DNA of 64,000 bases from the NCBI GenBank assembly GCA_964035575.1, contig OZ037843.1, positions 1,240,001 to 1,304,000 on the forward strand, given 5' to 3'. Shown in pieces: positions 18,906 through 61,781 of the stretch. The first letter of the stretch is position 1. Each line of letters opens with the position of its first letter. This DNA comes from Rhynchopus sp. YZ270_cl-10. Taxonomy: Eukaryota. The position numbers were made by a program, and so were the translations under genes. The notes beneath the pieces were generated by a model. That model saw only the letters and a program-made list of their open reading frames with translations, ran no database searches and was not told the origin of the DNA.

Positions 18906-19011
18906 TTAATTTGTTCTCTTGAAATGTATAATTTCATGTTTTCGCGAAAAAATAACGACTGATCCCACAAGGGTTGAAGGAAGGTGGTTGAAAACAACAA
19001 TAACAACAAGG

Positions 19012-22805: not shown

Positions 22806-23039
22806 TGTGACCCACTGCAGGATCCTCCTTTTGTCAGGCAGGTGGTTAACTATGACTGTCACGCTTATGTGGATGAGATGCTGTCTTGCATCGTTGTTTT
22901 CCAACAACGGATATGGACTCGTCCGGAAACCCCCACACGGCATCCACCCCACAACGTTGCCTTGTCTTGCATCCTGTCTGTCCCCACACCACACCACACA
23001 TCCCAGACACTCTCTTCCCTTTCTGTACACCTCAGAACA

Positions 23040-27428: not shown

Positions 27429-30400
27429 AATAACTATTTTCTCTGTAGGTCGTTTGCATGTTCAGAAACATTTTTTGAACTAAAATGACAAGTGTTCAGT
27501 GTCAAGATCCTCCACGTAAGGGTTTTCCTCAAAGGGGTGTTTTTTTATTGGCTTTTTGTTTTGCAACAAAAATGTCCTCATTGCGAAAACTGTGCTTTTT
27601 TTTTCGTGGAGGATCTTGAGAGCCCTGCAAGTGTTGCTCTAATTTTTTCCGCACACTACTTTGTGAGCGGAAAGTGTCACGTCGTTCACTCACCCAACCG
27701 TGCTCCGCAACACCACCACCCAACAGGTGATTTTTAGTGTGTGGAAGCGTCAACGCATCAAATAACTACAAGAAGGGGGGTGAGGGAACGACAAGTGACA
27801 CTTTTTCGCAGTGCCGACGGTGTGACGTTTGTACTTTCAACCTCTCTTTTTTTTCATGTTACTTTCACTCCACTCTATTTCCGCGTATGCCATCAATTTA
27901 TTGATTGCATATGTTGAAATACATGTTATTTCACCCCTCAAATGCTTTCTGTTCTCCTGAATTGAAAGTATATGACTTAAATGCTTCTTTTTTCGCTCCC
28001 CTGGGTCTATGCTGCACAGTTACGGAAAGGTGTACTGGCTGAACCCTACTTTTTATTTGCAAAAAATAAACCAAAAATTTTTCCAAAAAAAGAAGAGGAG
28101 AAAACTCCATAATAATATTATTTCGATTGAAATTTTTTGCTCCCTTTGGTGTGCTGGGAATTTGGTCGAGGACCTGTCAGGGACCTCTCAGTATTGGGTA
28201 CCCCAAGGGTGCCAAAGACCTGTCAGGGACCTGTTTGCGGCCGCTTCTGTAGCACACTTCGTTTTTTTTTTTTTTTTTCCTTTTTGCCGGCTCCGTGACG
28301 CCACAGAGCCGGCACACTCGTTGAATGCCTCACAAAACCTCAAATTTATTCCTCTTTGATTTGCTGTTGGGTTGGGAAATAAAACTTAGGCGCGTTATTA
28401 GAAACTGACCTTGATTAGCCAACGGTAAATTTGTCCTCACGCTTTTTCCTTTTTTTGAATCATTTCCCAAATTATCATGTGCGCCACCCAGGGTACGAGC
28501 CTAAATGGCTTCCTAAAATGGCTGCGGTCAACGAAAAAAAAAGACACAGTAGTAGATCAGCGAGGACAAATCAAGTGGCAAACTGTGAGTTTAGAATTTC
28601 CCCCCCCCCCCCCCCCAATTTTACTGGCGACAGCCACTATTTTACAACAATCCGTGAGATTTCATCCGGGACTGGCAACATACGCTGGGTCCTCACTCCC
28701 CCCCCTATGAGCCACTAACCTATACTTTTTGCATACACGAAGTGTTTATTGGAAACTGAACAAAAAAAGCGTTTAAAAATCAACAGATCAACTGTCTTCA
28801 CGCTTTCCTCTGGATTCCTCGTCTCCCCTCACCACATATTACCACGTGCGCCACTCTACTCAAAGCAAAGAGCCTAAATGGCTAGTACGAAGAAAGACGT
28901 GGTAGATTCCCATGGTGGTGTTTAAGTACGCCTTCAGGTACGCCTGAATTGGACTTAGCCCATGATTTGTTATGAGTTGTTCAGTTTTTCTCGTTAAATT
29001 GTACTGCAAATTTTTAGTTTTTCGGATGTCACAACTTACAGGAACAGAAAAAGGGGAAAACCCAAAAATGGTGAACAAAAGCAACAGGACGGTTGTGTGA
29101 ATGACCACTTCGTCTTGGAATTTATTTATTTTTTTGTCCTGTTTTCCAAAAAGTAAGAAGTGTTACAACCGTGGTGCTCTTTCTTTCCTGTTTGTTTACA
29201 CGTTTGTATTTTAGCACATTTGCTCGACCTCGTGAACAGTCGCGCGTCTCGTCTTGTTTTTGCCCTCTCTTTTGTGCTCCACGACACTTTCTGTACTTCA
29301 GAAAAACCACACTACCGTTTACCGTATTCGTAAAAATGTTAGTAAAAAAAAGGTCGAACTTCCAGAAAAATCTTGAGGTCGAACATTATTACGATTGATA
29401 ATTTTTTGTACGAATCTGGTAAACGTAACTTATGGGGAGATCCGGGTGGCCGCAACAACACTATTCACAAAAAATCAAAAATAAATCACAAAAAATCACA
29501 CCCACTTTTACACGGTACCATAAAGATCTTAAGGAAGATATTTGTGTTTTTTCAGGATTCCTGGAAATCCTGACACTTTGTGTTTTTTTTCTTCAGGATT
29601 TTTCAAGATCCTGACAATTTGTGTTTTTTTTTTTTTTTTTACCAGGGGGCTTCTCTATGTTGTAGGCATACAGAGGTACAGATTTTACAGACCGGGGCCG
29701 CAACTGGCTGGGATGTCACGAAACCATACTTATCGCTAAATATGCCGTTTTTCCCGAAAAATTTTAGAATTCCACGCCCAATTTCTTTCTTTTTGGCAAA
29801 AAAAATTTTTCGCGCTTCGCGCGAAAAAGGTCCTCAGAAGCTCAATTCCGGAAACAAATACGGGGGGAGCGACGTTTTCCAACTCCTCCGCCATCAGCAG
29901 GAACACCTCCGTTTTCTCTTGAATCTGTGACGCTTGTTGCTGAGAAACAGGGCGACAGCGCGTTCAAGCATATTCCCCATCTTTTCAGTGTTAAACTCGT
30001 GGCGAAGCCACGGTACGCAACATTTCTAAAAAATGCGCTTACAATTGCACCTTTTTTTACAGCCAAACTATGTCATGGAAAGGATGTAATGCAAGCTTGC
30101 GCCGCAGGCGCATGGTACGCTACTTTTTTCTTTGCCCTTATCCTTCTTTCTCACTCCTCATTGCTTCCCAAAGGTTCTGGCGAAGCCACGGTACGCAACA
30201 TTTCTTTAAAATGTTGACATAAAATGGCACTTTTGCTGGTAACTATCGTCCAGTTCCGTAAATTTTACTTCCATATTTTGCTAAAACGAAAGTTTCTAGC
30301 GAAGCCACGGTACGCAACATTTCTAAAAATTGCGCTTAAAATTGCCTACTATGTCGCGGGAAGGGTGGGTTGAAAGCTCGCGCCGCAGTGCATCTTCCTT

Positions 30401-31673: not shown

Positions 31674-33530
31674 GCGGAAATTGACCAAAAAACGAGAACT
31701 TGTCCATTTCGGCAAATTGACCCCACCACTGGCCGGATGGATTCCGGAAATGCAAATGCCGGCGTTTCTAAGCAAATTCTAACAGGGAAATAGCTTGGGT
31801 ACTTTTGCTGGTTTCAAAACCAGAACAAGCTGGTTTACTGGTTTGGGGAAAAATAAAAAAAAAAAGTGGGATTCGGGATTCAGTTATTCGTCGCCCCGCG
31901 CCACTTTCTTACTCACAGAAGAGAAAGCCTCACACGTAAGCGAACCCCTAAAAAGGGTTCATTGAGCGACTCTGTGGTGTAAAAAGCTGCATGTTTTGCA
32001 CTATACCCTAATTTTTTTCGCCTGCGGCGCCACTTTATATTATTTTTTTGCTCCGCAAAAAAATAGAGTTTACAATGTCGTAGGGAACCCCCTTGCATTT
32101 TGCGGCCACAAATGCAACTTGACCAAAGCTGCAAAAAGTTGACCGTTTTTTCAAAATGACCCACCGTTGTAACAGCTTCTGGAAGACGTATTGGCTTTGT
32201 ACGGTTAGTGAAACGTAAGGTGCAAGACCAAGCGCCGTTAACACAGGATTATATTCCATTTTCTTTGTTGTCTCGCAAAATTTACCCTTTGCCTCTCCAC
32301 TCTGCGGTTGGCAGGGAGGCGCGCGCGAAGCGCGCGACGACCGCTTTCAACCGGGGAAAATTTTTTCTAAACCAGCAAACCAGCAACATTTGAAAAGTGC
32401 ACCTTTCAAGCTACTACCCTGAATTCTAAGCAAGAGAGAAAAAAAAACACAAAAAAAAAAAAACACAAATTGTCAGGATCTTGATCAGGAAGAAGAAGAT
32501 TTGAGTCCGTGAAAAAAAAAAAATCTTCTTTAAGAACTTTCTGGTACCGTGCTTTTAAAAAATAAGTTTTTGTGATTTTTTGTGATTTTTTTGTGATTTT
32601 TTGTGAATAGTGTTGTTGCGGACACCCGGATCTCCCCAACTTAGTAATATTTAGCAAACAACCTCACTTTTCCTCTCCCCGCTTTGTACCCTATAGGACA
32701 ACAAGGCAAAGAGTCACGAGCCTCTCTCGAACGTTTTTAAAAGGTGACTAAGCACGAGAGGCTTAGGATCATCTTATAAACTTTTCTTTTTTTCTTTTTT
32801 TCCAACCCGTTCAAAAAGCTATTGTCCCCCCAAATTCCCCCCTCCAAACAAAGAGAATGGGGAGGGGAGGAATTCATCGCGCGACAATCGCAGCAGTAAT
32901 AGACTGTTGTGTTGAAGTGTTGTGTTACTGGATAAAGTGGAGCTTTTCAGCTTCCTTTGTTTCCTTCTTGCTGTCTGTAGAGGGCTTTGTATTTCAAGAA
33001 AAAACTTTCTTTGATTACCCTACGCAAGGGTGAGCCCGTTGTCCTATTCGGAAAATCCAATGTTCACATCAAAATGAAGACAAGAGGGAACTCCACTTTC
33101 TCACGGGATGTCCACAAAAAAAGACGACGGTGTTTTCTGTGTTTTCTTGTTTTCTGTTTTTATCAAATTTTCTTTGAGTACGCTACACAAAAGGTTTCGA
33201 TACCCGCCGAGAAACGCTGCCTGCGCCTGCCGAGGTACGGTGAGGCGTTTGCACTTTCAACTTCTGTTTTTTTCGTATATAAGTTTACACACACACACAC
33301 GGTGGCTTCAAACGGACCACCCCAAGGACAAAGTACTCCAACGTGCGCACCATAGTACCATTTGTTCCATGTGTTTGTGTGCCGGCTGTTTACATGCCCA
33401 GAAAACTTTGAGACGTCGAAAGACACACCCCGCCTCCCCTACTGTCTTGCCTTGTCTTGCATCCTGTCTGTCCCCACACCACACCACACATCCCCAGACA
33501 CTCTCTTCCCTTTCTGTACACCTCAGAACA

Positions 33531-40737: not shown

Positions 40738-41507
40738 AGTAGGTTGCCGTTGTACACATCATGAGGGACTTGCTCAGTATCACACCATGTTGTGTCGTGT
40801 AGGTTTCTGTGGCTAGATTTGCCACTGACACCGGACTTCTTTCCTGATGACGTATGGTGTTGTTTCTTGTCTGTTCCACATCCTTCCTTCACCCCACCCT
40901 GTAGTGAGTGATGGGTATACGGTAGGGTACGGTGATTTTTCGGGATAAGGGATACAGATACGGACACGCAAGGATGCGTCTGATTAATCTTTACCAAAAA
41001 CTTACCGTATCCTTACGTATCCCGTAGCCGTACGTATCCTGCTGGTCAAAGAAACTGCCAATTTTCGAGCTGTACGGTCGTAGCCCAAAAATGCAAATAA
41101 GGGCCCTTTTTGATTTGTCCTGTGTATTTTCTCAGGTTTTCAGAAGAACGATAAAGAAGCAACTGATCTTTCAGGGGTTGAAGGAGGATGTGTGGAAAAC
41201 AACAATTTGTACGGGGTGGAGTTCCAGCGTGGTTCCTCGCCCTTTTCCTTATCAGACCCCGTTTTTTTTTGTTTTGAGAAAATTACGTGTTTTGTTTTTG
41301 ATTCTGTTATTGTTATAGTTTTGTTCTTATGGACTGCAATCGTTTTCAAAGAACATTGTGGGATTCGTTTAGTTTCCTCACCATTTTTATTATTTATTTC
41401 TGTTTTTCCCTCTGTCAGATTGAAAGATTAAAATAGTGTGTGTAGTGCAGAAATAAATACTTGGCTCTTTCTATCTGTCTTTTCGTTTCGTTTAAGAAAA
41501 GAAAGTA

Positions 41508-43115: not shown

Positions 43116-43960
43116 ACAAGTAATTGCTATCGGAAAAAAAACCGGGTGTGCTGTGGAACTCCACTCTGAAAAAGATATAATCTACAACACGCCAGCATTC
43201 TGCTCTTCTGCAGGTATGCTAAAACGCTCTTCGTACGGGATGCCTGCATCTGAAACTTTCAAACAGTGGGTGTCCTCTTCGTCCAGCACCATCTGCTCGA
43301 TCGCGTTATTGGACGTAGTCTCGGCAGGCTCGATAACCATTCGCTCGGGCGGCCTCGGCATGTTCCAGCTCGTAAGTCGTCCACAGGCTCCCACGCATCG
43401 TCGTCATCGGAGCAGTGCGGAAGGCACACAAAATGCACAGACGACAACACGTCGTCGATCGCACCAGGCATCGTCACATCAGCACCTCCAGAAAATCGCC
43501 AGGATGCTATGGTGGTTTCGAAAATCGCGCGGAGTTTTCCACAGCACACCCCGTTTTTTTTCTTAGCAATTAGTTGTTCTTGTTCTAGTTGTTTTCCACA
43601 CACCTTCCTTCAACCCTTGTAGGATCAGTTCGTATTTTTTTCGCGAAAACATGAAATTACACATTTCAAGAGAACTAAAAATTAAAAAGGGTTCGCCCCC
43701 TCAATGGGACGCCGTAAACCATAATTCCTCAGTGTCAGCCGCATCATTTCAATGAAACCAAAAAGTGGCTTATTTGCATTTTTGGGCTCCGCCCGTGCAG
43801 CGGTGGGGTCATTTCGGAAAATTGGACAATTTTTTTACCACTTAAATTTTGAGAAATATGAGCCCGGTTCCTTATACGTGGGGCCCATTTTTGGCCAAAA
43901 TTTTCCTCAAAACCGACGAAATTAAAATTAGACCCCTTACCCCCCCCCAGAATCATTTCA
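43116..43960 (-). repeat. Inverted diverged copy of ~18700-19449
   Basis: Reverse-complement similarity over the TIR element, the adjacent TTCAAGAGAAC/CGCGAAAACATG block and the GGGCTCCGCCCGTGCAG block. Confidence 0.8.
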
Positions 43961-44343
43961 ATACACTACCTGTATTGGTTGCTGACGCGTGTATACAGGA
44001 AGGTTGGGAAAACGGGAACATAAATCCAGAATGAATTGCTGTTTTTTCCGAGAACAAGGAGCAACCCTGGAGCACACTCTAGCCAGACTAGGGTGGCTAC
44101 ACTAATACAACCACGTTTTCAAAAAAATAAAAAAAGTACCAGCTACCTGTACCAATTTTCTCTCTCCAGTCCAGAAGATATTTGTCCGTGGTTCGAGATG
44201 TTCTTCTGACCGCTGAAGAGGTTGTTCTGTTCTTGCACGTTCATGAGAGGGTACAGTCGTTTAGGGGAAGGTGCGCAACAGCCACATACACATCACTATA
44301 CACAGTGACTACACAAAAGCGAATCTAGAGAGGGAGACAAACG

Positions 44344-47300
44344 ATGAAGGTTGTGTCACTCAGCGCACTGGCGCTGGTTGTGGGGGTGGTGACTGCTGCA
44401 ACTTCTACACCAGGCAGTGGCAGCATGAGCGGCAGCTACAGTGACAGCAGCATGAGCGGCAGCAGCATGAGCAAGAGCAAGAGCGGCTCGAAGAGCACCA
44501 CGGGAAGCATGAGCGACAGCAGCGATATGAGTGACCTCGGCAACGAACTGTTCGCGTCTGCCGATGACGGGACACTGTGCAAGCACGCCCACGCATGCTT
44601 AGGGCACTGCAAGGACGAGAACTGCAAGAACACCACCCTTGTCTGCGATGCGAGCATCTGCCACAGTACGTGCCTGGACGAGGAGAGCTGTGCACACTCA
44701 CACATGAACTGCCTCCGCCCTCACAATGGGTTGTGCTCCCTGGTGTGCCTGGGGGAGAAGTCGTGCTACGGCTTGACGTCTGCGGAGGACACGAACTACG
44801 CCGGTATTGAACTGGACGACTTCCCTGACGACACGAAGGGCACGCAGTACGGGATGTGGTCACCCGAAGGCACAGCGATGTCGTCGCTCACATGTGGGGG
44901 CACGAAGTCCTGTGCAAACTCGACTGTAGGGTGTGCCGGTTATGAGTGCGGACTCCTCTGCACCGGGAACAATTCCTGTGCCGAACTAGAGTATGCCGTG
45001 TCTGAACGGGCGCAGCGTATCGCAATCGATTGCATGGGCCCTTGGTCGTGCCGGGGTGCGAAGTTCGACCTTGGCGAGTCGATGGAGTGGGCCAACTACA
45101 GCGACAGCAGCATGAGTGGCAGTAACGGCAGCTACAGTGACAGCAGTATGAGTGGCAGTAACGGCAGCTACAGTGACAGCAGCATGAGTGGCAGTAACGG
45201 CAGCTACAGTAACGGCAGCATGAGCGGCAGCAGCATGAGCAAGAGCAAGAGCGGCTCGAAGAGCAACACGGGAAGCATGAGCGACAGCAGCGATATGAGT
45301 GACAGTGGCAGCAGCAGCATACCATACCTCTGGAAGCAAACCACTGTTTCGTGTTTGAACAACGGTTCTTGCTGGGGTGCGAAGGTGGAGTGCCCCGGAT
45401 GGGGTCCTTGCAATGTGGTATGCAGCGGCCAGGACGCCTGTCGCGACATGAGCCTCATGTGCGAGGGCTGCAACTTGTACTGCTTCCTTGGTGACTACTC
45501 GTGCAATGGCATCAATGTCAACGGCAGCTACCTGAGGTACGACCATGCATATGACAGCAACGAGAGCAGCGAACAAAGCGACGGAAGCAGCGATGATGGA
45601 AACGCCGTGTGTGATGACTCGGAGGGCAGAATGGAGGGAGTGGCCAACTGCACTTCTGAAGGGGGGTGTGTGTGCGATGAGGCCGTGTGCAGCGCGATGT
45701 GCACGGCGGAGGGCAGCTGCAATGGGACAAGCATTCTGTGCAACGCGAAGTACTGCAAGCTGGAGTGCTGCGAGGAGAGCTGCCGCGACTCGCACATCAA
45801 CTGCGATGCTGATGTCTGTGACGTGCGCTGCTATGCGAAGGAGTCGTGCGCAAACCTGAAACGTGCTGAAGACACCGAGCACAACATCGACATCCCTGCA
45901 AACCGCGGAGGCACCGGCTACGGCCTCTGGGGATCGCAGAGGGCTGGACTCTCCGACTTCGATTGCACCGGCACAAGCTCCTGCGAGAACTCCACCATTG
46001 GCTGTGCCTCGAGGAGGTGCGAGCTTGAGTGCAGCGCTAACTACGCGTGCAGAGGCACAAAGGTCAATATCTCAGGTGCGTCGGCAGCAGTCGTGTGGTG
46101 CACAGACGATGTTTCCTGTGCTGGTTCGCGTATCAGCTTCGACGCACACTTCCCTGTTATGGAGGAGGAGGCGAAGGCCAGGAACGCGAAGGCCTTGGCG
46201 GATGCTAGCGACAGCAGCAGCATGAGTGGCAGCAACAGCAGCATGAGCGGCAGCTACAGCAGCATGAGCGGCAGCTACAGTGACAGCAGCATGAGCGACA
46301 GCAGCAGCATGAGCGGCAGCTACAGTGACAGCAACATGAGCGGCAGCAGCATGAGCAAGAGCAAGAGCAAGAGCGGCTCAAAGAGCAACACGGGCAGCCA
46401 CAGTGACAGCGGCAGCATGGACATGGACACTCCCACGATCTACTGCACCAGCAACAGTGCGTGCGCGCGCTCTGTCTTCCACTGCTCAGACGACGACGAA
46501 AAATGGTGCAAGCTGTCATGCATCGGTGAGAACTCGTGCCGTGGGGTCAATGTCACTGGCTCATGGGATATTACGTGCTACGGCATTGATGAGGCGTGCA
46601 AGGACCTGGACGACGGTGGCAACGAAGTCTGTGACATGAAGAAGGGCTCGTGCACGAAGTCCAAATCCAAGAGCAAGTCCAAGGACAACAGCGACAGCAG
46701 CGACAGCAGCGACAGCAGCGACAGCGACAGCCTCGACATGCACGAGATGTGTGCTATGTTCGTCGACAAGGCGAGCCCCGGAAACTGCGCTGCGGAAGGC
46801 GGCTGTATGTGCGACCCTGTCGAAAACAAGGACACCTGCACCGAGATGTGCACGAGCCCCCTCGTTTGCGCAAACAGCAGCATCATCTGCAAAACGGAGG
46901 ACCTTTGCAAGCTGGAGTGCTGCGAGGAGAGCTGCCGCGAGTCGCACATTAACTGCGACACGAAGGGGCTGTGCGAGGTGCGCTGCTACGGGAACAGGGC
47001 GTGCTACGGCATGCAGCGTGTCCACGACACAGACTACAGCGGCATCGACCTGCCGGCCGGACTTGCTGGCGAGGGCTACGGTCTGTTCGGAGGCGAGAAC
47101 GCAGAGAAGTCTCTCTTTGAGTGCTCGGGGAACCACTCCTGCGCGTCGTCGAACATTGGCTGCGGGTCTGGCTTCTGCGAGCTGGACTGCAGTGGCCACG
47201 CTGCCTGCGAGAAGGTCGTCTTCAACGTCTCGGACACATCCTCCGCCGCTGTGCACTGCACCAACAAGGGCGCCTGCACGAACACCTCCTTCCACTTCCA

Positions 47301-49266
47301 CGTCAACTTCCCCGGACCTGCCAGCGACGCTGCTGTTGCCAAGGCCGCCACCGCCACCACCGCCACCTCTGAGGTCAACTGCATCGGTGAGGAGGCCTGC
47401 CGTGGCGCCGTTCTGAAGTGCCCTGCCACAAAGTCGTGCAACCTCCACTGCAAGGGAGGCCACGCATGCCACTCCACGAACGTTACTGGTGGGGTCTGGA
47501 AGGTGAAGTGCCATGGTGTGGACCATGCGTGCACGAACATCAGTGCAGACGGGCACGACGTTTGTGACAGCAACGCGACCGCGAACTGCCATGAAGAGAC
47601 CCAGGGTAGTGCCAGCTCTGGTAGTGCGAGCATGGACTCCAGCAGCATGAGCTCGGGTAGCATGGGCAGCAGCATGGGCGGCAGTGCCGGCAGCAGCAGC
47701 GCGTCGCATGCGTGGGGTAGCTACCAGAGCCTCTCCTGCGCGGCGGAGCAGGACTGCCGCTGTGACGACGACGTCTGCCGTGGGCAGTGCAGGGAGGCAG
47801 GCTCATGCAGCAACTCCAGCATCCTCTGCAACGCAAAGGAGGAGTGCAGCCTCAACTGCGTCAAGGAAGGCAGCTGCAAAGACGCGCACGTCAACTGCAA
47901 CACCGCAGGCGTCTGCAACGTGCACTGCATTGGGGACAGGTCCTGCACCGGCCTCAAACGTCCATCGTACTCCCCGTATTGGTACCCCGACATGGCAGGA
48001 AAGCTGTACGGGCTTTGGGGTGCCGCCACCGCGAAGTCGACCCGCTTCACCTGCACCGGAGTCAACTCCTGTGCACAGTCGTCCATCGGATGTGCGTCTG
48101 ACTACTGCGACCTGAGCTGCAAGGGTGCTGCATCGTGCAACCAGACCGTCGCGTACTTCGCGGGCACCAGCGCGAAGGTGCGCTGCAAGAGCACAGACTC
48201 CTGCACAACGTCGGCCTTCAGCTTTATGAACAACGCTGGCCCGGCGAGCATTGGGTGCTATGCGAATTCATCGTGCAAGGGCACGGAGATCACCTGCCCG
48301 GCAGATTCCACATGCACGCTGAAGTGCACAGAGGCCGCCTCTTGCGAGAACCTTGCCATCCAATGCGCCTCAGACACCAACGGACACTGCGAGATCCGCT
48401 GCGAAGGGTCTGCCTGCAGCGGCGTCTACATCACCGGACGTGCCAACGTCGTGTGTGTCGGGGACTGCGGTCTTGAGACGAAGTACTCCGACCTCGTGGC
48501 ACCCATGCCAGGCGACTGTGGGTCCTGGGAGAAGAAGTCGGGCGTCACCGAGACCATCGACTGCGCAACAAATTGCACCAACACCACCGACGTTGCGAAC
48601 GACTGCAGACATTGGTGTCAATGCACCGACACCGCTGCCCCCACCCCTGCCCCGGTCCTTGCCAGCGGGATTGTCGAGGTCCTCAAGAAGGTGTTCGACC
48701 TTGCCCTTGGTGCTCTCTTTGGCTCCTTCAATAGGGTCCTGTTTGTGCAGTACCTGACTGCCATGTTGAGCGCAGTGCTGAACGCATTCCAAATCCATTG
48801 GCTCTGCCCTGCAAGCGCATGCGACGGAGGCTGCCCAAGCAGTGTCTTCGCAAAGATGGCAGGTGGCTGCACCAGCGTTGACTCGACCACTTCCCTGAGA
48901 GAAGCGTTGATTCTGACAGACGCGTCCGGAGGGACCAACGTTATGTTCGAGCCAACTGAGTACTCAGGCACCGCAACCGTTGACGACGTGACCAACACTA
49001 TTAACGACAGAATTGCCAACCCTACCGCAGATGACACCTTCCAACTGCTTGGTGTGACTGAAAGCACGACAGGTGTCCTCGTCACAGCACCCACCCCGGC
49101 ACCTACCTTCGATGACGACGACGAGCTCGCACCTGGCATGATCGGATTGATTGCTGGTCTCAGTGCGCTGGGATGCATTGCGTTGGTTGCCTTTATCGCG
49201 CTCTGTGCCTGTGGCGGAAAGAAGGAGGACGCCAACCTCCCCGTCAAGAATGAGCCTGCTCTGTAG
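44344..49266 (+). CDS. Large cysteine-rich type I surface glycoprotein (1640 aa) with Ser/Met-rich linkers
   Basis: Signal peptide (MKVVSLSALALVVGVVTA) and four Cys-rich modules sharing C..SCRDSHINC..C.VRCYG..SC..L.R...YGLWG...F.CTG..SC..S.IGC. Also SMSGS repeats, many N-x-S/T sequons, a C-terminal TM (MIGLIAGLSALGCIALVAFIALCAC) and a short tail. Confidence 0.92.
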   Translation: MKVVSLSALALVVGVVTAATSTPGSGSMSGSYSDSSMSGSSMSKSKSGSKSTTGSMSDSSDMSDLGNELFASADDGTLCKHAHACLGHCKDENCKNTTLVCDASICHSTCLDEESCAHSHMNCLRPHNGLCSLVCLGEKSCYGLTSAEDTNYAGIELDDFPDDTKGTQYGMWSPEGTAMSSLTCGGTKSCANSTVGCAGYECGLLCTGNNSCAELEYAVSERAQRIAIDCMGPWSCRGAKFDLGESMEWANYSDSSMSGSNGSYSDSSMSGSNGSYSDSSMSGSNGSYSNGSMSGSSMSKSKSGSKSNTGSMSDSSDMSDSGSSSIPYLWKQTTVSCLNNGSCWGAKVECPGWGPCNVVCSGQDACRDMSLMCEGCNLYCFLGDYSCNGINVNGSYLRYDHAYDSNESSEQSDGSSDDGNAVCDDSEGRMEGVANCTSEGGCVCDEAVCSAMCTAEGSCNGTSILCNAKYCKLECCEESCRDSHINCDADVCDVRCYAKESCANLKRAEDTEHNIDIPANRGGTGYGLWGSQRAGLSDFDCTGTSSCENSTIGCASRRCELECSANYACRGTKVNISGASAAVVWCTDDVSCAGSRISFDAHFPVMEEEAKARNAKALADASDSSSMSGSNSSMSGSYSSMSGSYSDSSMSDSSSMSGSYSDSNMSGSSMSKSKSKSGSKSNTGSHSDSGSMDMDTPTIYCTSNSACARSVFHCSDDDEKWCKLSCIGENSCRGVNVTGSWDITCYGIDEACKDLDDGGNEVCDMKKGSCTKSKSKSKSKDNSDSSDSSDSSDSDSLDMHEMCAMFVDKASPGNCAAEGGCMCDPVENKDTCTEMCTSPLVCANSSIICKTEDLCKLECCEESCRESHINCDTKGLCEVRCYGNRACYGMQRVHDTDYSGIDLPAGLAGEGYGLFGGENAEKSLFECSGNHSCASSNIGCGSGFCELDCSGHAACEKVVFNVSDTSSAAVHCTNKGACTNTSFHFHVNFPGPASDAAVAKAATATTATSEVNCIGEEACRGAVLKCPATKSCNLHCKGGHACHSTNVTGGVWKVKCHGVDHACTNISADGHDVCDSNATANCHEETQGSASSGSASMDSSSMSSGSMGSSMGGSAGSSSASHAWGSYQSLSCAAEQDCRCDDDVCRGQCREAGSCSNSSILCNAKEECSLNCVKEGSCKDAHVNCNTAGVCNVHCIGDRSCTGLKRPSYSPYWYPDMAGKLYGLWGAATAKSTRFTCTGVNSCAQSSIGCASDYCDLSCKGAASCNQTVAYFAGTSAKVRCKSTDSCTTSAFSFMNNAGPASIGCYANSSCKGTEITCPADSTCTLKCTEAASCENLAIQCASDTNGHCEIRCEGSACSGVYITGRANVVCVGDCGLETKYSDLVAPMPGDCGSWEKKSGVTETIDCATNCTNTTDVANDCRHWCQCTDTAAPTPAPVLASGIVEVLKKVFDLALGALFGSFNRVLFVQYLTAMLSAVLNAFQIHWLCPASACDGGCPSSVFAKMAGGCTSVDSTTSLREALILTDASGGTNVMFEPTEYSGTATVDDVTNTINDRIANPTADDTFQLLGVTESTTGVLVTAPTPAPTFDDDDELAPGMIGLIAGLSALGCIALVAFIALCACGGKKEDANLPVKNEPAL

Positions 49267-52575: not shown

Positions 52576-53292
52576 GTACGGTGTAAAAATCTAGCTTTTT
52601 ACACCACAGAGCCACTCAAACGAACCCTTTTTTGCGGAGCAAAAAATGAAAAATGGCGCCGCAGGCAAAAAAAAATCAAGGAACAGCCATTTCCCAAAGG
52701 CACTCCCGTGGTTCAACCACGGTTCTTCCAGGCGGGGGAAAAATGCGGGGAAAACAATCGAGTCCGCCCTAATCTGGGGACGACATTTACAGAAAGGTCT
52801 GGTGAAAAGTGTCGGTATTTTTTTCCCCTCCAGATTTCTCTGTTTTTTTTTTTTTTTTGAAAACCAGTTTTTGGAAAAACTGGTTTTCAAAACCAGTTTT
52901 TTTAACCACCCTAATACCCTGGATAAAACAAAAAAGCTTGCGTTTCCTTTACTTTTGAATCCCGATCCCACTTTTTTTTTAACCAAAAGAAAACCGACGC
53001 AGGAGCTTTTCTTGGAACTGTTTTATTCTCCCTACCCCAACAACATCACATTTCAGAAAAACATTGTTTTTTCGTTTTTGTTCACTTTCTTTTCTTCTCC
53101 CTCACACCTGTTTGCTGTGAATTAAATTTTTTCGTTTTTTGTGTGCGTTTTTTGTGAGATGGCACATAGGATGACGCGGGCGCAACGCGTCGGAACGGAG
53201 TGAGGAGTTGGTTGGAGGAGAAGGTGAGTTTGCGTCTGGCAGCGAATGCGCGCAGGGAGGAAGCCCGGGTGCCACAATTTTTTCGTTTTGTA

Positions 53293-53536
53293 TAAGAGTT
53301 GACTGTGCCTGCGTACTTCGACTCGCAGCGTCAGGCGAAGAAGGACGTAGGGGCGATTCTCGGGGATGGACGTGCTGTGCATCATCAACGAACCGACTGT
53401 GGATGCGATTGCGTACGGAATGGACAACGCGAGCGAGAGCCAGAAGAACATCCTGATCTTCGACCTGGGTGGCGGTACCTTCGATGTGACGCTTCTGGTG
53501 ATTGACGGGGGGATCTTCTAGGTGAAGGCGACTGCG

Positions 53537-53568
<32 letters not shown>

Positions 53569-54570
53569 CAACCGGATGGTGAACCACTTCGTGGAGGAGT
53601 TCAAGAAGAAGCGCCAGAAGCACCTGATGACGTACCAGCGTGCGGCGCCGTGTGCCTGTGAGCGTGCTAAGTGTGCGCTGTCGTCGGCGGCACAGACCAG
53701 CATTGAGATCGACTCGCTATTTGAGGGGACAGACTTCTACTCGTCGATCACACGTGTGACGTTCGAGGAGCTGTGCACGGACCTGTTCAAGTCGTGCCTG
53801 CGCGCTGTGGAGTCTGTCTTGAATGGCTCGAAGCTTGAGGTGCGACATTACGGAGGTTGTGCTGATCGGAGGATCGACCGGCGATGGTGTCGGACTTCTT
53901 CGGCGGAAAGGACCTGAACAAGTCGATCAACCCCGACGAGGCTGTTGCCTTTGGCGCTGCGGTGCAGGCCCTTGTGCTGACGGGGGGAAAGAGCACGCAA
54001 ACGGAGCAGATCCTGCTGATGGACGTGACGCCGCTGACTGTCGGGATTAAGACGGACGGGGGTGTGATGGCACCGCTGATCAAGAGGAACACGACGATCC
54101 CGACGAAGAAAAGCCGGGAGTTCTCGACGTGCGGACAACCAGAATGTTCTGTGTTCGAGGGGGAGAGCGCGATGACGAAGGACTGACACCAGCTCGGAAC
54201 GTTTTGACCCGGCAGGGATCCCGCCGGCCCCACGTGGAGTGTCCCAGATTGAGGTCACCTTTGACGTCGACGCGAATGGCATCATGGACGTGTCTGCCGA
54301 GGACTAGTCGACCGGGAACTTCCGGGGAAGAAGTCGCAGGTCATCATCACCAACGACAAGGGCCGTCTGTCCCAGAAGGAAATTGCCGACATGTGCAACG
54401 ACGCAGAGAAGTTCGCTGAGGCCGACAAGCAGGCGCGTGCGTGTCGGCGCCAGACACTCGAGACCTACGCCCACCAGATGGTCACCACCCTCGAGCTCTG
54501 CGGCACTGAGGCCACCAAGGAGGAGTTCCAGTCCTCCCAGAGGAAGCTGGAGAGGACCTGCAGCACCTGA
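53293..54570 (+). pseudogene. HSP70: HSP70 pseudogene fragment (5'-truncated, multiple stops and frameshifts)
   Basis: [120 protein letters not shown]. Confidence 0.93.
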
Positions 54571-54809
54571 CGAAGCTAACAGATGGCTATTCGTACAGCA
54601 GTGTAGAGGCAGGGAAGGAGTTATCGGCGGAAGCGTTTGGCTGATACGTGGCTCGATGTCGTTCACGAAGAAAGCAAAGCCGGAACATCACCTTCAACAA
54701 GCTGTTCGGGGCGTACTGTGTCGTGGTGTGCCTGAGGGACCTTGGCTCCGTGGATGAAGGCGTTTACAGTGTGGAGCTTGTTAGCGCACCTACGCCAAGA
54801 TTGTACGCG

Positions 54810-55150
54810 GCAAGGTAGACTACGGCGATGGGAGTACCTATCAAGTACTTATGAAGGGCAAATCCGTCATGGAAAATGAGAAGGTAAAGACACCCTGATG
54901 TACAGTGCCTGCGATGAGTATGAAGGCGATTGGGTGGACGACAAAAAGAATGGGGTACGCTGTTTCAGTAGAGGGACGTATGTGGGTGAATGGAAGGATG
55001 ATAAGATGCATGGACCGGGACGGTAACGTTTGAGGATAAGTCGCGGTACGAAGGGCAGTATTGCGAGGATAAGATGGAAGGGCAGGGCAAGCTGCTCTAC
55101 GCGAATGGAAACAGATACGACGGTGGTTCTGTGAACAACTGCAAACACGT
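54810..55150 (+). pseudogene. MORN-repeat protein fragment (disrupted)
   Basis: YEGDWVDDKKNG; YVGEWKDDKMHGPGTVTFEDKSRYEGQYCEDKMEGQGKLLYANGNRYDG. Confidence 0.8.
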
Positions 55151-56719
55151 TAAAGGGCATATCTTCTAAGAAGCCACCAAGGACATCGTCGAGCTGCAGG
55201 GTGTGCGGCAGCAAGGTCGTGCGAGTGAACGTTACGGCAGGGACGGGTATTGTGGCCTCCCGCAGGAGCGTGTAGTCGTTAGCCCACGGAGGCACTCTAA
55301 CGACCTCACGAAGGATGCTGCATGGATATTTTTCTGGAGAACACCGAGAACGCGAACGTCGCCCCACAGCCAGTAGAGGTAGGTGAAGACATGACGCTCG
55401 TCGACCCTGCTACGGTGGTGTGCAACCACAGCACCCTCCCGAGCGAGTGGGTGCGTTTTTCCCTGCACGGGGACGACGACTGTGCTGTGCTGTGGATGTG
55501 CGTCTGAGTGACGTGACTGGCGAGGCGTGTATGTCACTGGTACCACTTTGAGGGTTTTGAGTGCATCAAGGATGTCAACACGACACGAGGTCTACCTGTA
55601 GCTGGTGTGGCAGCTTCTCTGTGCACTATCACGTCGAGCCCTCCGTGAGGTAGACATATCGCTTTTTATCTGCGAGAGTGTCCAGCAATTCCCCTACGTT
55701 GGCGCTACCGTCTCGCTCATGAGGAGTGCAGGTGTTGCGGAACGGGGGCGTGTGGCTTGACGCGCGGACGGAGCAGGCGGCACTGGGCCCCGGCTGGCTC
55801 AGGAAGGTTCTGCTGTTCCCGGCCACAATGGTGTGCTGCTTTGGGAGCATAGGCTGGTGCGGCAACCGAGGGCGGCGTTCCCTCGGATGAACCGGCTGTA
55901 GCAACTGGGTGCACTCTGCCTGAAGGTGCAGGGACAGGCTGATCCATTTGCCGAAGGTGCTCCTTGCGGAAATTCCTGGGTGGTGAGGCTTGGCTGCAGG
56001 CGTGCGTGCCCAGAACTGTGCATAGTCCGTTTACATCAGCTCGGATGAGAGTGTAGCTGGGGGTGCGCTGGCGTTGCTGAACCCTTGGGGGAGGTGGTGT
56101 TACGTGTCTCTTGGAAGTGGACGGCGACTTTGCTGTTCAAGCCCCCACCTCAATCTGGCGGAGAGAGCTGGTGGTAGCGCTGATTGCGACGGCTACGGCG
56201 GATATGCGCTGTTTGACTGGGATTGCTTTCGAGGTGTTCCACGACACTGGTACAGTTGTGTCGAGGCAACGAAAGCTGCGCTCTCCCCACCCAGGCGAAA
56301 GTCTGTTGATCGCGGAGTTTGGTGGGTGATATGTGCGGATGGAGATGTGCGCACGCACCATGTGACAACGGGGTACTTGGTCGCGGATATGGATACCTGG
56401 TGGGGTGTTTGTCAATTATGTGGGTCTGTTACGTTTCCTGGGGCACGTCTTTTGTGATGCTTCTCTGTTGTTCTTAGTCTTTCGTTTCTGTGAGGCGGGG
56501 GGGGAGGGGGGGGGGAGGGGGGGTTTTTTCTGGTCCTGGTCGCATACTGCGAGTTTTCCTGGAAGCGCAGGAAAAATGACTGGGGAGTGTTGGTGGCTCC
56601 GTGACGCCACAGAGCCGGCACACTCGTTGAGTGCCTCACAAAACCTAAAAATTTATTCCGCTTTGATTTTATTTATTGTCTTCACGCTATATTGTTGTTG
56701 TTGGGTTGGGAAATAAAAT

Positions 56720-58029
56720 AACCAAAAGAAAACCGACGCAGGAGCTTTTCTTGGAACTGTTTTATTCTCCCTACCCCAACAACATCACATTTCAGAAAAA
56801 CATTGTTTTTTCGTTTTTGTTCACTTTCTTTTCTTCTCCCTCACACCTGTTTGCTGTGAATTAAATTTTTTCGTTTCCCTCCCTCCCTCCCTAATTTGTG
56901 TCTTTTATTTTCCAGTTTGTTCGAACCGTTGAATTGTAGGCCCTATGGTGGTCAGGTGGGCCCTTTTTGTTTCAGTGTGTTCATGCGTAGGGTCCGAGTT
57001 GGCCTAGTGAACCTGAATTACCCCTTGTTTCAGTGCGGCCATGCAGAATGGACCTGAATCACCCCTTGTTTCAGTGTGTTCATGCGTAGGGTCCTTAGTT
57101 GGCCTAGTGAACCTGAATCACCCCTTTATTTCAGTGAACCACCCCGTGAGCGCGGATCACCCGTTGAATGGCCTTGCCTCTTGAAGGTTCTGGTCAGGTG
57201 GTGCTCAGGGTGTAAAACAGTTCTTGTTTAATGTGTTCTACTCGTTTAACCTATGGTGGTCAAGTGGTGTTGCAGGGTGTAAAAACAGATTTTTGGGGCG
57301 AAGTGGAGTTCAAAGTGTTAAACGGATGTGTGTTCAGTGCGTACCTCGTGTGGTATTTCTTGGTACTGTTTCCCTGTGCTAGTCTCACTCACATGTGTGT
57401 TCCATGCGGAGGGTCCTTAGTTGGACTAGTGGACATGAATCACTCCTTTTGTATCAGTGTGTTCTGTGTGGAGGTCTCTTAGTTGGCCTAGTGTAACTTC
57501 AACCTCTCTTTTTGCTTCAGTGTGTTCCATGCGGAGGGTCCTTAGTTGGCCTAGTGGACATGAATCACCCCTTTTGTATCAGTGTGTTCTGTGTGGAGGT
57601 CTCTTAGTTGGCCTAGTGTACTTCAACCTCCCTTTTTGCTTCAGTGTGTTCCATGCGGAGGGTCCTTAGTTGGCTTAGTGGACAGTTTTCTTGTACAGTG
57701 CAAACCCGTAAACGGGTTTGCGGGTTTAGCTGGCCTTAGTGGACCGAACCAACTTTGTGTTTTCAATGCGCCAGTAGCGTGGCTTGTCTTGGTCTTGATT
57801 TATCTCTACTTTAGCAGCAAAAATCCTGCACTCCCTAGTCCCATCCTGGTCGCATACTGCGAGTTTTCCTGGAAGCGCAGGAAAAATGACTGGGGAGTGT
57901 TGGTGGCTCCGTGACGCCACAGAGCCGGCACACTCGTTGAGTGCCTCACAAAACCTAAAAATTTATTCCGCTTTGATTTTATTTATTGTCTTCACGCTAT
58001 ATTGTTGTTGTTGGGTTGGGAAATAAAAT
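56720..58029. mobile_element. Cargo-carrying element, unit 2 (head-to-tail with unit 1): end A, tandem-repeat interior, end B
   Basis: Same ends as unit 1. The junction reads ...GGGAAATAAAA-T-AACCAAAAG... Confidence 0.75.
56968..57683. repeat. ~61-bp tandem repeats (two clusters, ~56968-57140 and ~57393-57683; second cluster alternates as a ~123-bp dimer)
   Basis: Unit CAGTGTGTTCCATGCGGAGGGTCCTTAGTTGGCCTAGTGGACATGAATCACCCCTTTTGT and variants. Confidence 0.85.
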
Positions 58030-59164
58030 TTATTTTCCCCCAAACCAGTAAACCAGCTCGTTCTGGTTTGAAACCAGTAAAAGTACCGAAACTATTTCCC
58101 TGATTTTTTGTGGGATTTGGTCCCACATAAAGACATCACTACCCGCAGTGTCCCACCACTTTATTTCGTATTTTTGTGGTCCTGTTACGAAATGGTACCG
58201 ATAGCGATCTACAGTTTGACCTGTCGCGACCTGTCGTTTCACGAGTAGTACCACAAACCAAGCCATTTGCTTCACCGTCATGTGCGAAGTGTACCGTAAA
58301 AGTGCCAACGATCTGAACGTAACGAACCGGCCATGGCTACGCGCTATGCTGCTACCCGCAGCGAGCTTACGAAACGCAGCCCACCTGCGGTGGCTGCTCA
58401 GAGTCTGGTGCCAGGCTGATCCTTTCTGAGTAGGTTTTTAGAGTGATTTTTGCTTATGAACGCCTTTGCCGTTTTGTGTAAAAACGTGGGTTACATTGTA
58501 CTGCACGGGTACGTGTACACCACCCTGTGGCCCACACTTGGTTCTGAAACCCCAGAGTCGCGTTTTCCACCATACTCAGATCTCGGCTCACAAAAATCAA
58601 AAAGGTGAAACTCCCGATTTTTTGTGAACCGCCCATTTTTGCCTGGGGAACCCTGTAGAAACACACGTACCAAGGCGTTTTTACACCTAAACTCGCGAGC
58701 AAAAGCTCTCCACACGGGCACTTTTTCCTCTTTTACACATTTTTTTTGCCCATTTTCTCATTTTGCACAGGGATTTACCTTTGTCATTTTTTCACAACAA
58801 CAAACAATTTTTTGTTTTAGTCGTGGCTGAGGCGTACTTAAACGTAAGTAATCCCGAATACGCCTCAGATGCGTTTTTCAGCCAGACCGTTTTTCATCAG
58901 TTTTCGGCCTCGCTGCATTGTATGTTTAAACATCCGTAATTGGAACCAATTCTGAAATCCGTGATCGGCCCCGTAGGTGAATGTTGCACGCGCTGCCGGT
59001 ACTGGAAACTAGGTGTCGGCGAGCAACTTACAACCCTATCCAAAGTATTGATATTTCTTGAAAAAGCCACCCATTATGTAGGGCCGGGTAAAATGGCGGC
59101 ACAAGGCACCCACCACACCACACCTCCCCAGACACTCTCTTCCCTTTCTGTACACCTCAGAACA

Positions 59165-61781
59165 ATGGTGTCATGCGGAATCCAGTCGCTGACAATGCTG
59201 CTGTGTGTGGTGCTGATTCTGTCGACAGGTGCGATCATCGGTGGCTTCACTCTGTCAACATGGGACGACCTTCTGGAGAAGGCACGTGACACAGGTGATG
59301 AGGGCTTCGGGATGTGTCTCGACAGTGGTACGGCGGACTTCGAAACGGTCTCGGCACGCTACCTGCGCTCTGTCCTTGGCAACGTGGACACGGCAGTGAA
59401 GGAGTACCTGAAGGTTCCTGAGCAGCTCGTGGTCTCGCTTGCCACCCTGGCACAGGCACACCACCCAAATGTGAGCACGAGCCCTGCCTTTGCAGCTTCC
59501 CATTTGCGTCCTGCAGTCATGTCTGCCTTTATGGCTGGGAAGGAGTCTGGAATTCTACGGTTCGGGCACGAAGCGTACCCGTGGTGTGCGGCACATCCTG
59601 TTCCGTGGAAGAGGGGTGACGGGTTTGCAGGGTGGGGCTCGCGGATGTCGTACATGAATGATGCGGGTGCTCACATGACGACTAATGTCACCAGCCCTAT
59701 CTTGCTGTATTCTACACGTGACCTCCTGACGCTGTCAGGGACTTTCCGACTATGTTGTCTTCACAGAAATCGACAAGCTCGGCGACATCAGAGACCCCTC
59801 ACAGCCGTGCAAGTACAATCCTGCCTACAACAAAGGCGAGATGCGTGGACTGTGCATATTCCCCATCCTGATTATCGAACCCCCGAACTTCGCAACCGTT
59901 GCCCAACGTGGGAGACAGATGTGGTACCTGGGTGCCGACGATCCACCACTGAACCCTGTGGACACTCTTGTTTATTCCAGCATGCAGGTGCAGTGGGACT
60001 ACACGGCGTGGGAGCTGAGCTACACCTACACCCACCCAGATATGTACACGATGCACCCCAAGCAGGGCAAACGTGTGGGTTCAGTAGTTGCCACCGTGAC
60101 TGCGAAAGGGGTGTCTGACGTGGTGCGTTCACAGCTGCTCCCGACCGGCACGTCGTTGTACCTGGTGGATGACGACCGTGCATCTGGTTCAGTGGGGACA
60201 CTTGTTGCGTACAACAGAGGACGGCACGTGACGCTCGCGAGAACCCAAAAGACCATCTACATCGAATTTGCGTCGAGCATCAACATAACGAACCACTCGA
60301 TGGAAGACGCGACGTCGCACATCCCCTCAGTGATTGCAGAGCACGGGCGGTTTGCGTTCACACACTCGCGGAACTACAGAGACCTTGTGGAGAAGACAGA
60401 GGACTCCTTCCTGAAGTGGTCTGACTCGAACGGCACGGAGTTCTGGACAATCACGTCGACAATTGAACACAGAACGATCTTCTGGTATTCAACCCTTCTT
60501 GTGCCGAGGACGTCTGTGATGGATACGATTGATGCGTCGACGAATGCAATCCGTGCGAAGGTGGCATCAGATCTGTCCTCTGCAGACGCACAGAAGGAGG
60601 ATGCGGTGACTGTGATGGCGATTGTGACGGCTGTTGCGGTGATAGGACTTCTTGCCATTGCTGTTGTGTTCACACGCTACATCACGTCACCTCTGCTGAA
60701 GCTTGGGAGAGAGATGGCAAGTGTGGCTGTGATGGACCTGGAGGCTGTGGACACGGGCCGTGCAGTGTCGCAGCTGAGTGAGGTGGGGATGATGCAGCGC
60801 AGCTTTGTTACCATGGTGGCGAACCTGGTGGAGTACCGGAACTACATGCCGCAGAGTGTGCTTGTCAACGAGAGTGAGGAGGAGGAAGAACCCACAGAAT
60901 CAGCTGAGTCCACGCAGAAGTCCAAAACAAAGGGTAGGTCTGGTGACTCATCCCGTTCGGAGTTGTCGAAGGCGCACAGCTCAGAGGTGGTGCAGAACCA
61001 GAAGGCACTGCTGCGTGTGGACGGGATGAAGAAGAAGAAGGTGTCGCTGGCACACATGAACGTCGTGTCGTGGCACGCCTTCATCAAGAAGCACAAGGAC
61101 GCAGAGGTGCTCTCCGCACACGCAGGTGTGATTGAGAGGATCCTGACAGCAGTGCAGCACAACAAGGGTGTGTGCGACACGTTTGCTGGGGACAAGATGC
61201 TTGCCACCTTCAACGCCTTTGTTCCGAAGTCGTCGCACAGTGTTTCCTGTGTGAAGGCTGCACACGAAGCAGCAACAGCACTTGGTGATGTGCACAAGAT
61301 CTCGTATGGGTGCACGACAGGCGAGGCACGTGTCGGGAACATGGGTTGCAACGGGATGAAGAAGGTGTCGATTCTCTCGCAGTCCATGTCGTGGGTGGTT
61401 GTGCTTGAGCGTTGGAACAAGAAGGAGAAGCTGCACGGTGTCATTGACCGCAACGTGTCACGTGAGGCAGAGGGACAGGTGGTGCTCCGTTGTGCAGGTG
61501 CTGTGCTGTTCGAGAAGTTCAGTGAGAAGGTGCAGACTGTGTTTGCTGTGAAGGGTCTGTGCAGCAGCGAAAACGAGGAGTGGATGTACCAGCTGGAGTC
61601 TGCCTCAAACAACCCGCACGCACTGTGGAACGAGGTCTTCGAGCACATCATCAAACAGGACTTTGAGAAGGCGTCTTCTCTGCTGGACAGCGTCGCTCAG
61701 GACCAACGCACACCTTACGAAGAGCTTGTGGGCTATGTGCGGCAGAAGGCTTATGCACCGTTCGTTGTGAAAATGCACTAA
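59165..61781 (+). pseudogene. Receptor with pseudo-cyclase domain, paralog 5, frameshifted by a 2-bp deletion near 59737
   Basis: ACGCTGTCAGGGACTTTCC here versus ACGCTGGCAGAGGGACTTTCC in paralogs 2 and 4. Otherwise collinear and open. Confidence 0.85.

Follow-up and report, generated by a model that had tools for sequence, protein, structure and literature searches.

Introduction

Rolling-circle transposons of the Helitron2/Helentron type have non-autonomous relatives, HINE/DINE-1 and non-autonomous HLE2, which are described with an off-centre inverted repeat (one arm at the tip, the other about 40 bp inside), a terminal hairpin, a T-run target with T or C to its right and no target duplication, and with many short copies, deletion forms, internal tandem repeats and gene fragments (structural sections of PMC4067079, PMC5148889 and PMC11417382). 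In the mite HINEs the arms lie 2-4 nt and 38-60 bp from the ends, with a palindrome near one end, T-rich targets, internal tandem repeats and internal-deletion forms (the HINE sections of PMC4067079). Helitron2 inserts between TTTT and T or C and has a 5′ hairpin (target and terminus descriptions in PMC5148889 and PMC13085455).

A second group of elements comprises retrotransposons with a tyrosine recombinase and split direct repeats, ordered A1-[..]-B1A2-B2. VIPER/SIRE and TATE of kinetoplastids, Ngaro and PAT are about 5 kb long, have identical repeat pairs of 130-310 bp, lack target duplications and give rise to abundant short A-B derivatives (element descriptions in PMC6681497, PMC8547959 and PMC4157794). 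The repeats are 173 bp (A) and 219 bp (B) in Trypanosoma cruzi VIPER, 136-144 and 288-308 bp in C. fasciculata, and 236 and 152 bp in Xenopus Ngaro. SIRE corresponds to A2 plus B2 of VIPER, and solo AB repeats are known in Cafeteria.

Only four retrotransposon clades are on record in trypanosomatids, and the mobile DNA of diplonemids is barely described. The Diplonema papillatum genome paper mentions ORFs resembling TATE, MULE and Helitron elements and defers their rigorous analysis (transposon section of PMC10161547).

Here, we describe a 5-kb insertion in a window of 64,000 nucleotides whose host is likely a diplonemid, a marine protist. The insertion belongs to an abundant A/B family with varied interiors, inserted without duplication directly right of a T-run. 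We give a probability of about 0.5 to its being a head-to-tail pair of non-autonomous Helitron2/Helentron-type rolling-circle units, one loaded with pieces of captured genes, the other with tandem repeats. This is a narrow favourite, and a single recombinase-type retrotransposon fits the layout almost as well.

Results

A precise insertion with duplicated ends

The insertion has the layout A1-cargo-B1|A2-spacer-B2 with a base-precise B|A join, in agreement with the A-cargo1-B-A-cargo2-B order that an earlier note on this DNA had set out. The features of the insertion and its target are:

52972..52979, + strand: left part of the target T-run, T8
52980..58028, + strand: whole insertion (5,049 bp), without visible target duplication; flanks rejoin to T11
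52980..53137, + strand: end A, first copy, 158 bp; T start, hairpin at the tip (52983-53015), inverted-repeat arm (53021-53048), pyrimidine-rich tail behind it
53138..56533, + strand: interior 1 (cargo), 3,396 bp, 57% G+C; coding-like on the + strand along most of its length; no transposon domain
56534..56718, + strand: first copy of end B, 185 bp; inner hairpin at 56585-56625, inverted-repeat arm at the terminus, 56693-56718
56719..56876, + strand: end A, second copy; abuts B1 with zero bases between
56877..57843, + strand: interior 2, the non-coding spacer, 967 bp; 57395-57684 is a tandem array of a 62-bp repeat with a higher order of 125 bp
57844..58028, + strand: end B, second copy
58029..58031, + strand: right part of the target T-run, T3, with the remainder of the target repeat next
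31783..31882, − strand: paralogous copy of the target repeat without the insertion (empty site), T11, 92% identity

A1 and A2 are the same letter for letter over 158 bp (52980-53137 = 56719-56876), as are B1 and B2 over 185 bp (56534-56718 = 57844-58028). The identical pairs of 157 and 186 bp reported earlier differ from these by a lone T at the inner junction that is assignable to either end; our lengths let A begin at that T. The interiors are unrelated, again as reported, with 3,396 bp of decayed gene pieces in one and 967 bp with a 62-bp repeat in the other.

The outer flanks, T8 and T3, sum to T11, which is also the run length in the minus-strand repeat at 31783-31882, uninterrupted there and the one empty site. 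The precise insertion into a T-run without target duplication that had been proposed thus stands, with the proviso that a 1-base duplication would go unseen in a homopolymer. The base right of the B tip is T in the insertion and C in a truncated copy at 28286..28384. Among the loose-end rows of public contigs (24 listed of 442, each row a majority over mixed contigs), the majority first letter is C in three of the four listed rows at the B tip and G in the other, and one further row has T and then C. These findings rule out a TPRT retroposon with a minus-strand poly(A) tail, as the empty site has an identical T11 and no duplication is seen, and also host DNA trapped between stray ends, as the outer flanks rejoin.

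The same layout raises a competing explanation, which we regard as a real possibility short of probable: that the insertion is one non-autonomous tyrosine-recombinase retrotransposon whose coding region was replaced by host gene pieces, the short A-B copies being SIRE-like or solo-AB derivatives. It could, with similar reserve, have been transcribed, reverse transcribed with the inner B1A2 junction templating the ends, and inserted through a recombinase supplied from elsewhere. The exact A1-[..]-B1A2-B2 order with identical pairs is found here (compare the layouts given in PMC6681497, PMC8547959, PMC4157794 and PMC9210276), and 158 and 185 bp fit the VIPER and Ngaro repeat pairs, which are all 99-100% identical. 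VIPER and TATE also insert without target duplication, a feature that does not separate the two mechanisms. Against it, the 3-base core common to junction and target in DIRS1-like elements (PMC3266345) is missing: at most 1 base is in common here. DIRS1-like elements also have terminal inverted repeats with an internal complementary region, and the repeats here are direct.

Interiors of decayed genes and tandem repeats

At least three decayed host genes (HSP70, MORN and a third) have contributed pieces to the cargo, all in one orientation. The recognizable parts of this mosaic are:

53299..54561, + strand: decayed piece of HSP70, corresponding to residues 145-602 of P0010, its closest relative
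54979..55115, + strand: best stretches of MORN-repeat fragments, which lie in two reading frames; E 1.2e-06 and 0.0011
55304..55644, + strand: frameshifted piece of a third gene, resembling unnamed proteins P0121/P0122 at 56% identity, no Pfam family

The HSP70 piece is identical to P0010 at 366 of 415 aligned residues and has 7 frameshifts, 3 stops and deletions. A quick HSP70 tree of 28 hand-picked relatives from the 120 listed, with the cargo left out, places the closest relatives and not the element. The last cargo piece matched none of 199 candidate relatives at E 0.01, and matches in the Atlas were all unnamed and under 0.9.

A six-frame Pfam scan of the insertion and two wide searches of cargo parts found host genes only and no transposon enzyme domains, including remnants of gag, recombinase, reverse transcriptase or RNase H. 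This speaks against a recombinase retrotransposon, although a non-autonomous derivative is compatible with it. No Rep or helicase remnant was found in the insertion or in the 100 of 144 non-genic ORFs of the window that were scanned (the rest lie mostly in repeats), which counts against a rolling-circle origin. A group with the annotation 'TATE DNA transposon' contains 281 D. papillatum proteins (one row of a supplement), and A1 is directly followed by a pyrimidine tract, AG and ATG; both are in keeping with a retrotransposon.

In the spacer the 62-bp repeat is present in 4.7 copies at 57395-57684, with more degenerate copies at 56961-57136. Public contigs contain a few near-identical copies of the spacer and several deletion forms. 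In five sequencing runs from two studies, 0.55-0.66 of sampled words were present; because this exceeds the non-cargo share of the stretch (0.39), much of the cargo is present nearly unchanged in these runs, the best of which may be the window's own source. The matches listed for the sampled words include no RNA data set.

Inverted repeat and hairpins at the ends

The asymmetric inverted repeat had been noted before and proves to be beyond chance: it pairs the arm at 53021-53048, about 40 bp inside A, with the tip of B over 26-28 bp, imperfectly, at a score reached in 0 of 2000 shuffles. With one arm 40 bp inside and no duplication seen, an ordinary TIR transposon or MITE is ruled out. The imperfect hairpin previously remarked on at the A tip exists and is weak taken alone, with equal folds in 37 of 500 shuffles and after 67 of the 556 T-runs of the window. 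As a whole, the B1|A2 junction forms a long stem-loop (z −5.1 as RNA, −3.8 and −4.9 as DNA), in which Rfam found no ribozyme and one sub-threshold match (MIR1507, E 0.069). [quoted passage not shown]

There is a slim chance that the family is moved by another enzyme acting on the folded B|A junction, such as a recombinase or an HUH nuclease of a type to which eukaryotic elements have not so far been linked. The strong stem-loop suggests this, as do two families with a geometry mirroring described HINEs and the single-stranded cDNA of DIRS (PMC7192593, in its account of replication). No such enzyme was found in the insertion, however, and for every feature taken singly there is a precedent among HLE2 or split-repeat elements.

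An abundant family and a second one built alike

Public contigs show A and B to be the two termini of a family that is very abundant and varies in its flanks and interiors. Between 404 and 1,076 contigs were matched per run, and the summed depth of the A and B bins was 14,590-71,644, compared with 96.5 for a unique flank contig in run X2. Among the contig joints listed are some that connect A with B and some that remove parts of the spacer. The spacer is in few copies and the ends in hundreds-fold excess, which argues against a single retrotransposon. Related copies in the window are:

28286..28384, + strand: truncated A/B-family member; T-run followed by B, from its inner hairpin (perfect in this copy) up to the exact tip; C on the right; A absent
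27644..27805, + strand: second, unrelated family of about 160 bp sharing this end geometry; also at 2690-2853 on the other strand, and truncated at 14638-14717

The A-less copy sits precisely between T-run and B tip, again unlike the expectation for split repeats. The ~160-bp family is a simple unit in which the inverted repeat score was reached in 0 of 2000 shuffles and the tip hairpin in 5 of 500 and 0 of 500. Both truncated copies in the window, one per family, kept the terminal-arm end and lost the hairpin end.

A1 and A2 have a minor family allele at A position 53 (the depth left over for it in four runs is 5.4, 0, 0.12 and 0.10%), and B1 and B2 one at B position 156 (4.3-7.5%); these shares are lower bounds because contigs drop rare variants. 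As the minor alleles are common to both copies of each end, the units are not two random family members, which favours a single split-repeat element. It is very unlikely that the pair is a local accident or an assembly error, in which a single A-spacer-B or A-cargo-B had its ends duplicated by recombination, repair or consensus calling, so that the family would be real and the pair without meaning of its own. The B1|A2 junction is bridged by none of the 32 contig pieces listed (2,519 further pieces fall outside that list), and the A1/A2 allele leaves about one unique-copy depth in runs X3 and X4 and none in X2, where two would be expected for a pair. Against an accident, every junction is base-precise, the flanks rejoin cleanly, the word content of the five runs exceeds the non-cargo share, and contigs prune variants inside repeats.

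Public contigs break at the repeats. Exact patterns, one for A and one for B, retrieved 0 stretches from metagenome contigs. Two viral contigs with an 18-base match were taken as chance, as the matches extended to 20 and 18 bases only. The openly accessible literature on diplonemid rolling-circle transposons and on capture by recombinase retrotransposons yielded no published description of the A/B family; the D. papillatum repeat supplement, outside that scope, may bear on its novelty.

Discussion

A rolling-circle origin is favoured because of the off-centre inverted repeat, the T-run|T/C target, the lack of a shared core and the second family built alike; an asymmetric inverted repeat and a T|T or TTTT|T/C target without duplication are both present. 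Copying would depend on a Rep-helicase encoded elsewhere in the genome, which would nick at the invariant B tip, copy one strand towards A and stop after the A-tip hairpin. Read-through past the inner A2 hairpin could move both units as one. The identical ends with different interiors might come from a circle dimer whose first interior was later replaced by cargo in gap repair, or from gene conversion between neighbours, the weakest step of the scheme.

Several findings count against this origin. The layout and sizes match single split-direct-repeat retrotransposons, and the cargo, whose HSP70 piece has 7 frameshifts and 3 stops, is old yet lies between identical ends, a combination explained in one step by retrotransposon-type resetting of the repeats. 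On the other hand, the openly accessible literature that was searched offered little on gene capture by non-autonomous recombinase retrotransposons. The inverted repeat of 26-28 bp is imperfect and longer than the 12-17 nt of HLE2 as described in the sections cited above. The A/B geometry mirrors that of described HINEs (in which the palindrome is at the 3′ end when the flanks are read as T), and the A-tip hairpin is weak. Of the earlier proposal of a non-autonomous, rolling-circle-like family that shuffles gene fragments, the non-autonomous character, the cargo and the lack of target duplication hold, and the rolling circle is kept as a narrow favourite only. That there are two elements is not established, because the split-direct-repeat layout, overlooked there, explains identical ends with different interiors more simply.

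Unlike HINE and HLE2 elements, the insertion has a longer, imperfect inverted repeat, a hairpin beside the T-run at its 5′ end, two units that differ in their interiors but not in their ends, a Rep-helicase partner that is only putative, and a likely diplonemid host. In contrast to VIPER, TATE, Ngaro and PAT, it carries host-gene cargo in place of gag, recombinase and reverse transcriptase, a 1-kb tandem-repeat spacer and a long off-centre inverted repeat, with zero bases between B1 and A2 where the T. cruzi copy in the supplement has a few extra.

The hairpin orientation had been thought perhaps undescribed. It is not undescribed as such, because HLE2-reverse (FoHeli3-5) and the proto-Helentron already have a hairpin first, with the left inverted repeat next, then the interior and the right inverted repeat (element sections of PMC11417382 and PMC5148889). 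In Helitron2, too, the hairpin is at the 5′ end, and the target is TTTT|T/C. Their order, unlike that of the insertion, is defined against a Rep-helicase ORF; in those sections FoHeli3-5 is without an established target and the proto-Helentron inserts between A and T, whereas the insertion lies in a T-run. The hairpin is on the 5′, T-run side in both the A/B and the ~160-bp family, and the canonical 3′ order of HINEs is found in neither; this mirror arrangement tied to a T-run, in a euglenozoan, was not found in the openly accessible literature.

It is doubtful that the 5-kb composite moves in diplonemids as one unit: a split-direct-repeat element with Helentron-like signals at its B|A junction, shuffling several host-gene fragments. 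If so, it would be either a gene-capturing tyrosine-recombinase retrotransposon acting through a folded single-stranded junction or a DNA-only rolling-circle element mimicking the split-repeat layout, and some elements classed by layout alone would be misclassified. An abundant carrier of multiple gene fragments would offer a route to new chimeric genes in a host group that transcribes genes in long same-strand runs. Because two unrelated mechanisms can yield the A..BA..B layout, the locus is a clean test case for telling them apart.

TOC1 of Chlamydomonas is a further likeness, a non-autonomous element of DIRS order (classification in PMC9940879) with split repeats (as given in PMC3266345). 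Its host group differs from that of the insertion. We know of no captured gene pieces in TOC1. It has internal tandem repeats, as does the insertion.

Anatomy and target of the insert

The insert occupies positions 52980-58028 (5,049 bp, if a single ambiguous T is assigned to A), and the earlier note's claim of paired identical ends is borne out by two exact repeat pairs within the window, arranged as A1-cargo-B1 followed by A2-spacer-B2.

Components of the insert, in order
A1: 158 bp, first part of the insert, ahead of interior 1
Interior 1 (cargo): 53138-56533, 3,396 bp, between A1 and B1
B1: 185 bp, directly abutting A2 with zero intervening bases
Interior 2 (spacer): 56877-57843, 967 bp, between A2 and B2

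The flanks join up again as T8 and T3, together equal to the T11 of an uninterrupted repeat at 31783-31882 (minus strand), this T-run being a homopolymer, so that a one-base duplication there would go unseen. The target repeat (58030-58104) is itself abundant in four sequencing runs, with a summed depth far above that of unique flank.

Abundance of the family

Five runs from two studies contain 0.55-0.66 of the region's sampled words, and the richest may be the window's source; five further runs contain at most 0.10. Contigs of four runs were aligned for the family, to 56530-58400 only. Since summed contig depth is not copy number, the depths in run X2 (14,590-71,644 in the A and B bins, 79-3,749 in the spacer bins, and 96.5 for a unique flank contig) are taken only as an excess of ends over spacer, which we read as ends in hundreds-fold excess and a spacer present in a few copies. 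Among the 24 of 442 entries listed, loose contig ends cluster just ahead of A (9 and 6 contigs, with T-rich majority letters) and just past the B tip (6, 6, 5 and 2 contigs, with first majority letters C, G, C and C); agreement among them is low, as would be expected of differing flanks. The joints listed (15 of 27) either connect A straight with B or remove portions of the spacer, and the empty target is seen in four contigs of run X4.

None of the listed contigs bridges the B1-A2 junction, and an allele common to A1 and A2 is left with the depth of roughly one copy instead of two in runs X3 and X4, and with none in X2. These observations speak for a dimer that arose by local accident or assembly error, an explanation that we consider improbable.

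Origin of the cargo

When both interiors were scanned against Pfam in six frames, the + strand gave HSP70 and MORN matches, and no domain of a transposon turned up; a NAD-GH match on the minus strand is presumably an antisense shadow of HSP70. The HSP70 piece corresponds to residues 145-602 of its closest relative, P0010, with 366 of 415 residues identical, seven frameshifts and three stops. Its nearest matches are unnamed proteins, reaching 86-87% across the query, followed by kinetoplastid HSP70 (73-74%), and in a quick tree built from 28 relatives of our selection the closest form a clade of 11 outside kinetoplastids that includes a Diplonema japonicum protein. Judged by these relatives of the cargo, the host is probably a diplonemid. 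In related genomes, cytosolic-type HSP70 occurs as several divergent paralogues, roughly 600-660 aa long (P0010, P0013-P0020, P0023) and some of them on contigs of a single length, hinting at an expanded HSP70 family there.

The third cargo piece matches the unnamed proteins P0121 and P0122, and when one frame of 55301-56332 was put through a full HMMER search, two proteins came back, P0121 and one weak match. A search for relatives of the last piece found none, and about 900 bases at the cargo 3' end are without gene assignment after these searches. A codon model prefers + frames across most of the cargo; the window's long ORFs having Pfam matches are also on the + strand. Together, the HSP70 decay, the three gene pieces and the + strand frames mark the cargo as an old mosaic of three or more genes, all on one strand. 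No transposition enzyme was found in the insert or in the window ORFs scanned, and in Diplonema papillatum look-alikes of both enzyme kinds considered below are described (PMC10161547); that the family is mobilised by some other enzyme seems to us very unlikely.

End signals and mode of mobility

An off-centre inverted repeat pairs 53021-53048 with the B tip, its score being matched by 0 of 2000 shuffles, and the fold at the B1-A2 junction is far stronger than that of shuffled sequence. The A-tip hairpin is weak by itself: 37 of 500 shuffles equal it, and folds as good follow 67 of the 556 T-runs in the window. A truncated family member at 28286-28384 consists of a T-run and the B inner hairpin through the exact B tip, followed by C. 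A second family of about 160 bp, unrelated to A and B, shares this geometry, with a T-run followed by a hairpin, a subterminal arm and a terminal arm.

Copies of the second family (96% identical, beside T-runs)
2690-2853: full copy
27644-27805: full copy
14638-14717: truncated copy

We favor, at a probability of about 0.5, non-autonomous rolling-circle elements of the Helitron2/Helentron type; this and our other gradings are judgements, none of them computed. Such elements are described with one arm 2-4 nt and the other 38-60 bp from the ends and with a terminal palindrome; they insert into T-rich targets, contain tandem repeats and occur in deletion forms (PMC4067079), a pattern that the end signals here fit. 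Helitron2 integrates with TTTT on one side and T or C on the other (PMC5148889, PMC13085455), and in a reverse form already on record the stem-loop precedes the left repeat (PMC11417382). This reading is supported by the off-centre inverted-repeat arrangement that two families share, a target of the T-run|T/C form, the series of deletion forms, a cargo from multiple genes, retention of the same end in both truncated copies (2/2), and an insert junction sharing at most one base with the target, as against three in DIRS1-like elements (PMC3266345).

Alternatively, the insert could be one split-direct-repeat retrotransposon of the VIPER/TATE-like kind, a serious possibility that we nonetheless rate below even. 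Its layout is exactly that described for such elements, A1-[ORFs]-B1A2B2 (PMC8547959, PMC4157794, PMC9210276, PMC12278014), and its repeat sizes fit. The identical pairs resemble those of VIPER, which in T. cruzi and in two copies from C. fasciculata are reported to measure 136-173 and 219-308 bp, with 99-100% identity, SIRE being an A2-B2 derivative (PMC6681497). The paired repeats also have common alleles that are minor in the family (minor-allele shares being lower bounds because contigs lose rare variants), and identical ends enclose old cargo. Slightly against it, the two VIPER junctions inspected by eye showed no comparable off-centre inverted repeat (PMC6681497).

Under the rolling-circle reading, and by analogy with the cited families, a nick at the B tip would be followed by copying of one strand, which would halt past the A hairpin; if the inner hairpin were read through, both units would move jointly. 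The route by which they may have gained identical ends is more speculative. The ends, target, family and cargo are established parts of the mechanism. Each single feature of the insert already has precedent, and the family is real, abundant and gene-shuffling, in a little-studied group, with a mechanism that is easy to test.

Other features of the window

At 5240-6075, an 836-bp stretch bounded by 244-bp inverted repeats (99.6% identity) resembles a MITE or foldback element of recent origin and is about 70% related to the arms of 6461-7742, where 568-bp inverted repeats (97.7% identity) enclose a short centre. An exact head-to-tail 263-bp duplicate flanked by T-runs (18377-18907) opens a longer repeat, of which another copy lies at 43113-43971 and a partial one at 41043-41206.

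A gene of about 900-1000 aa is present in five related copies of 82-92% DNA identity (19632-25661, 33078-36155, 38044-40737 and 58940-61781), with HAMP and adenylate/guanylate cyclase domains in the first ORF and the last copy in two frames. An ankyrin and two-TIR gene (12073-14010) adjoins a ubiquitin and BspA-type leucine-rich-repeat gene (10381-11691), and these neighbours may be an immune-like protist pair. An open frame of 1,645 codons at 44329-49266 has internal repeats and is without a Pfam match.
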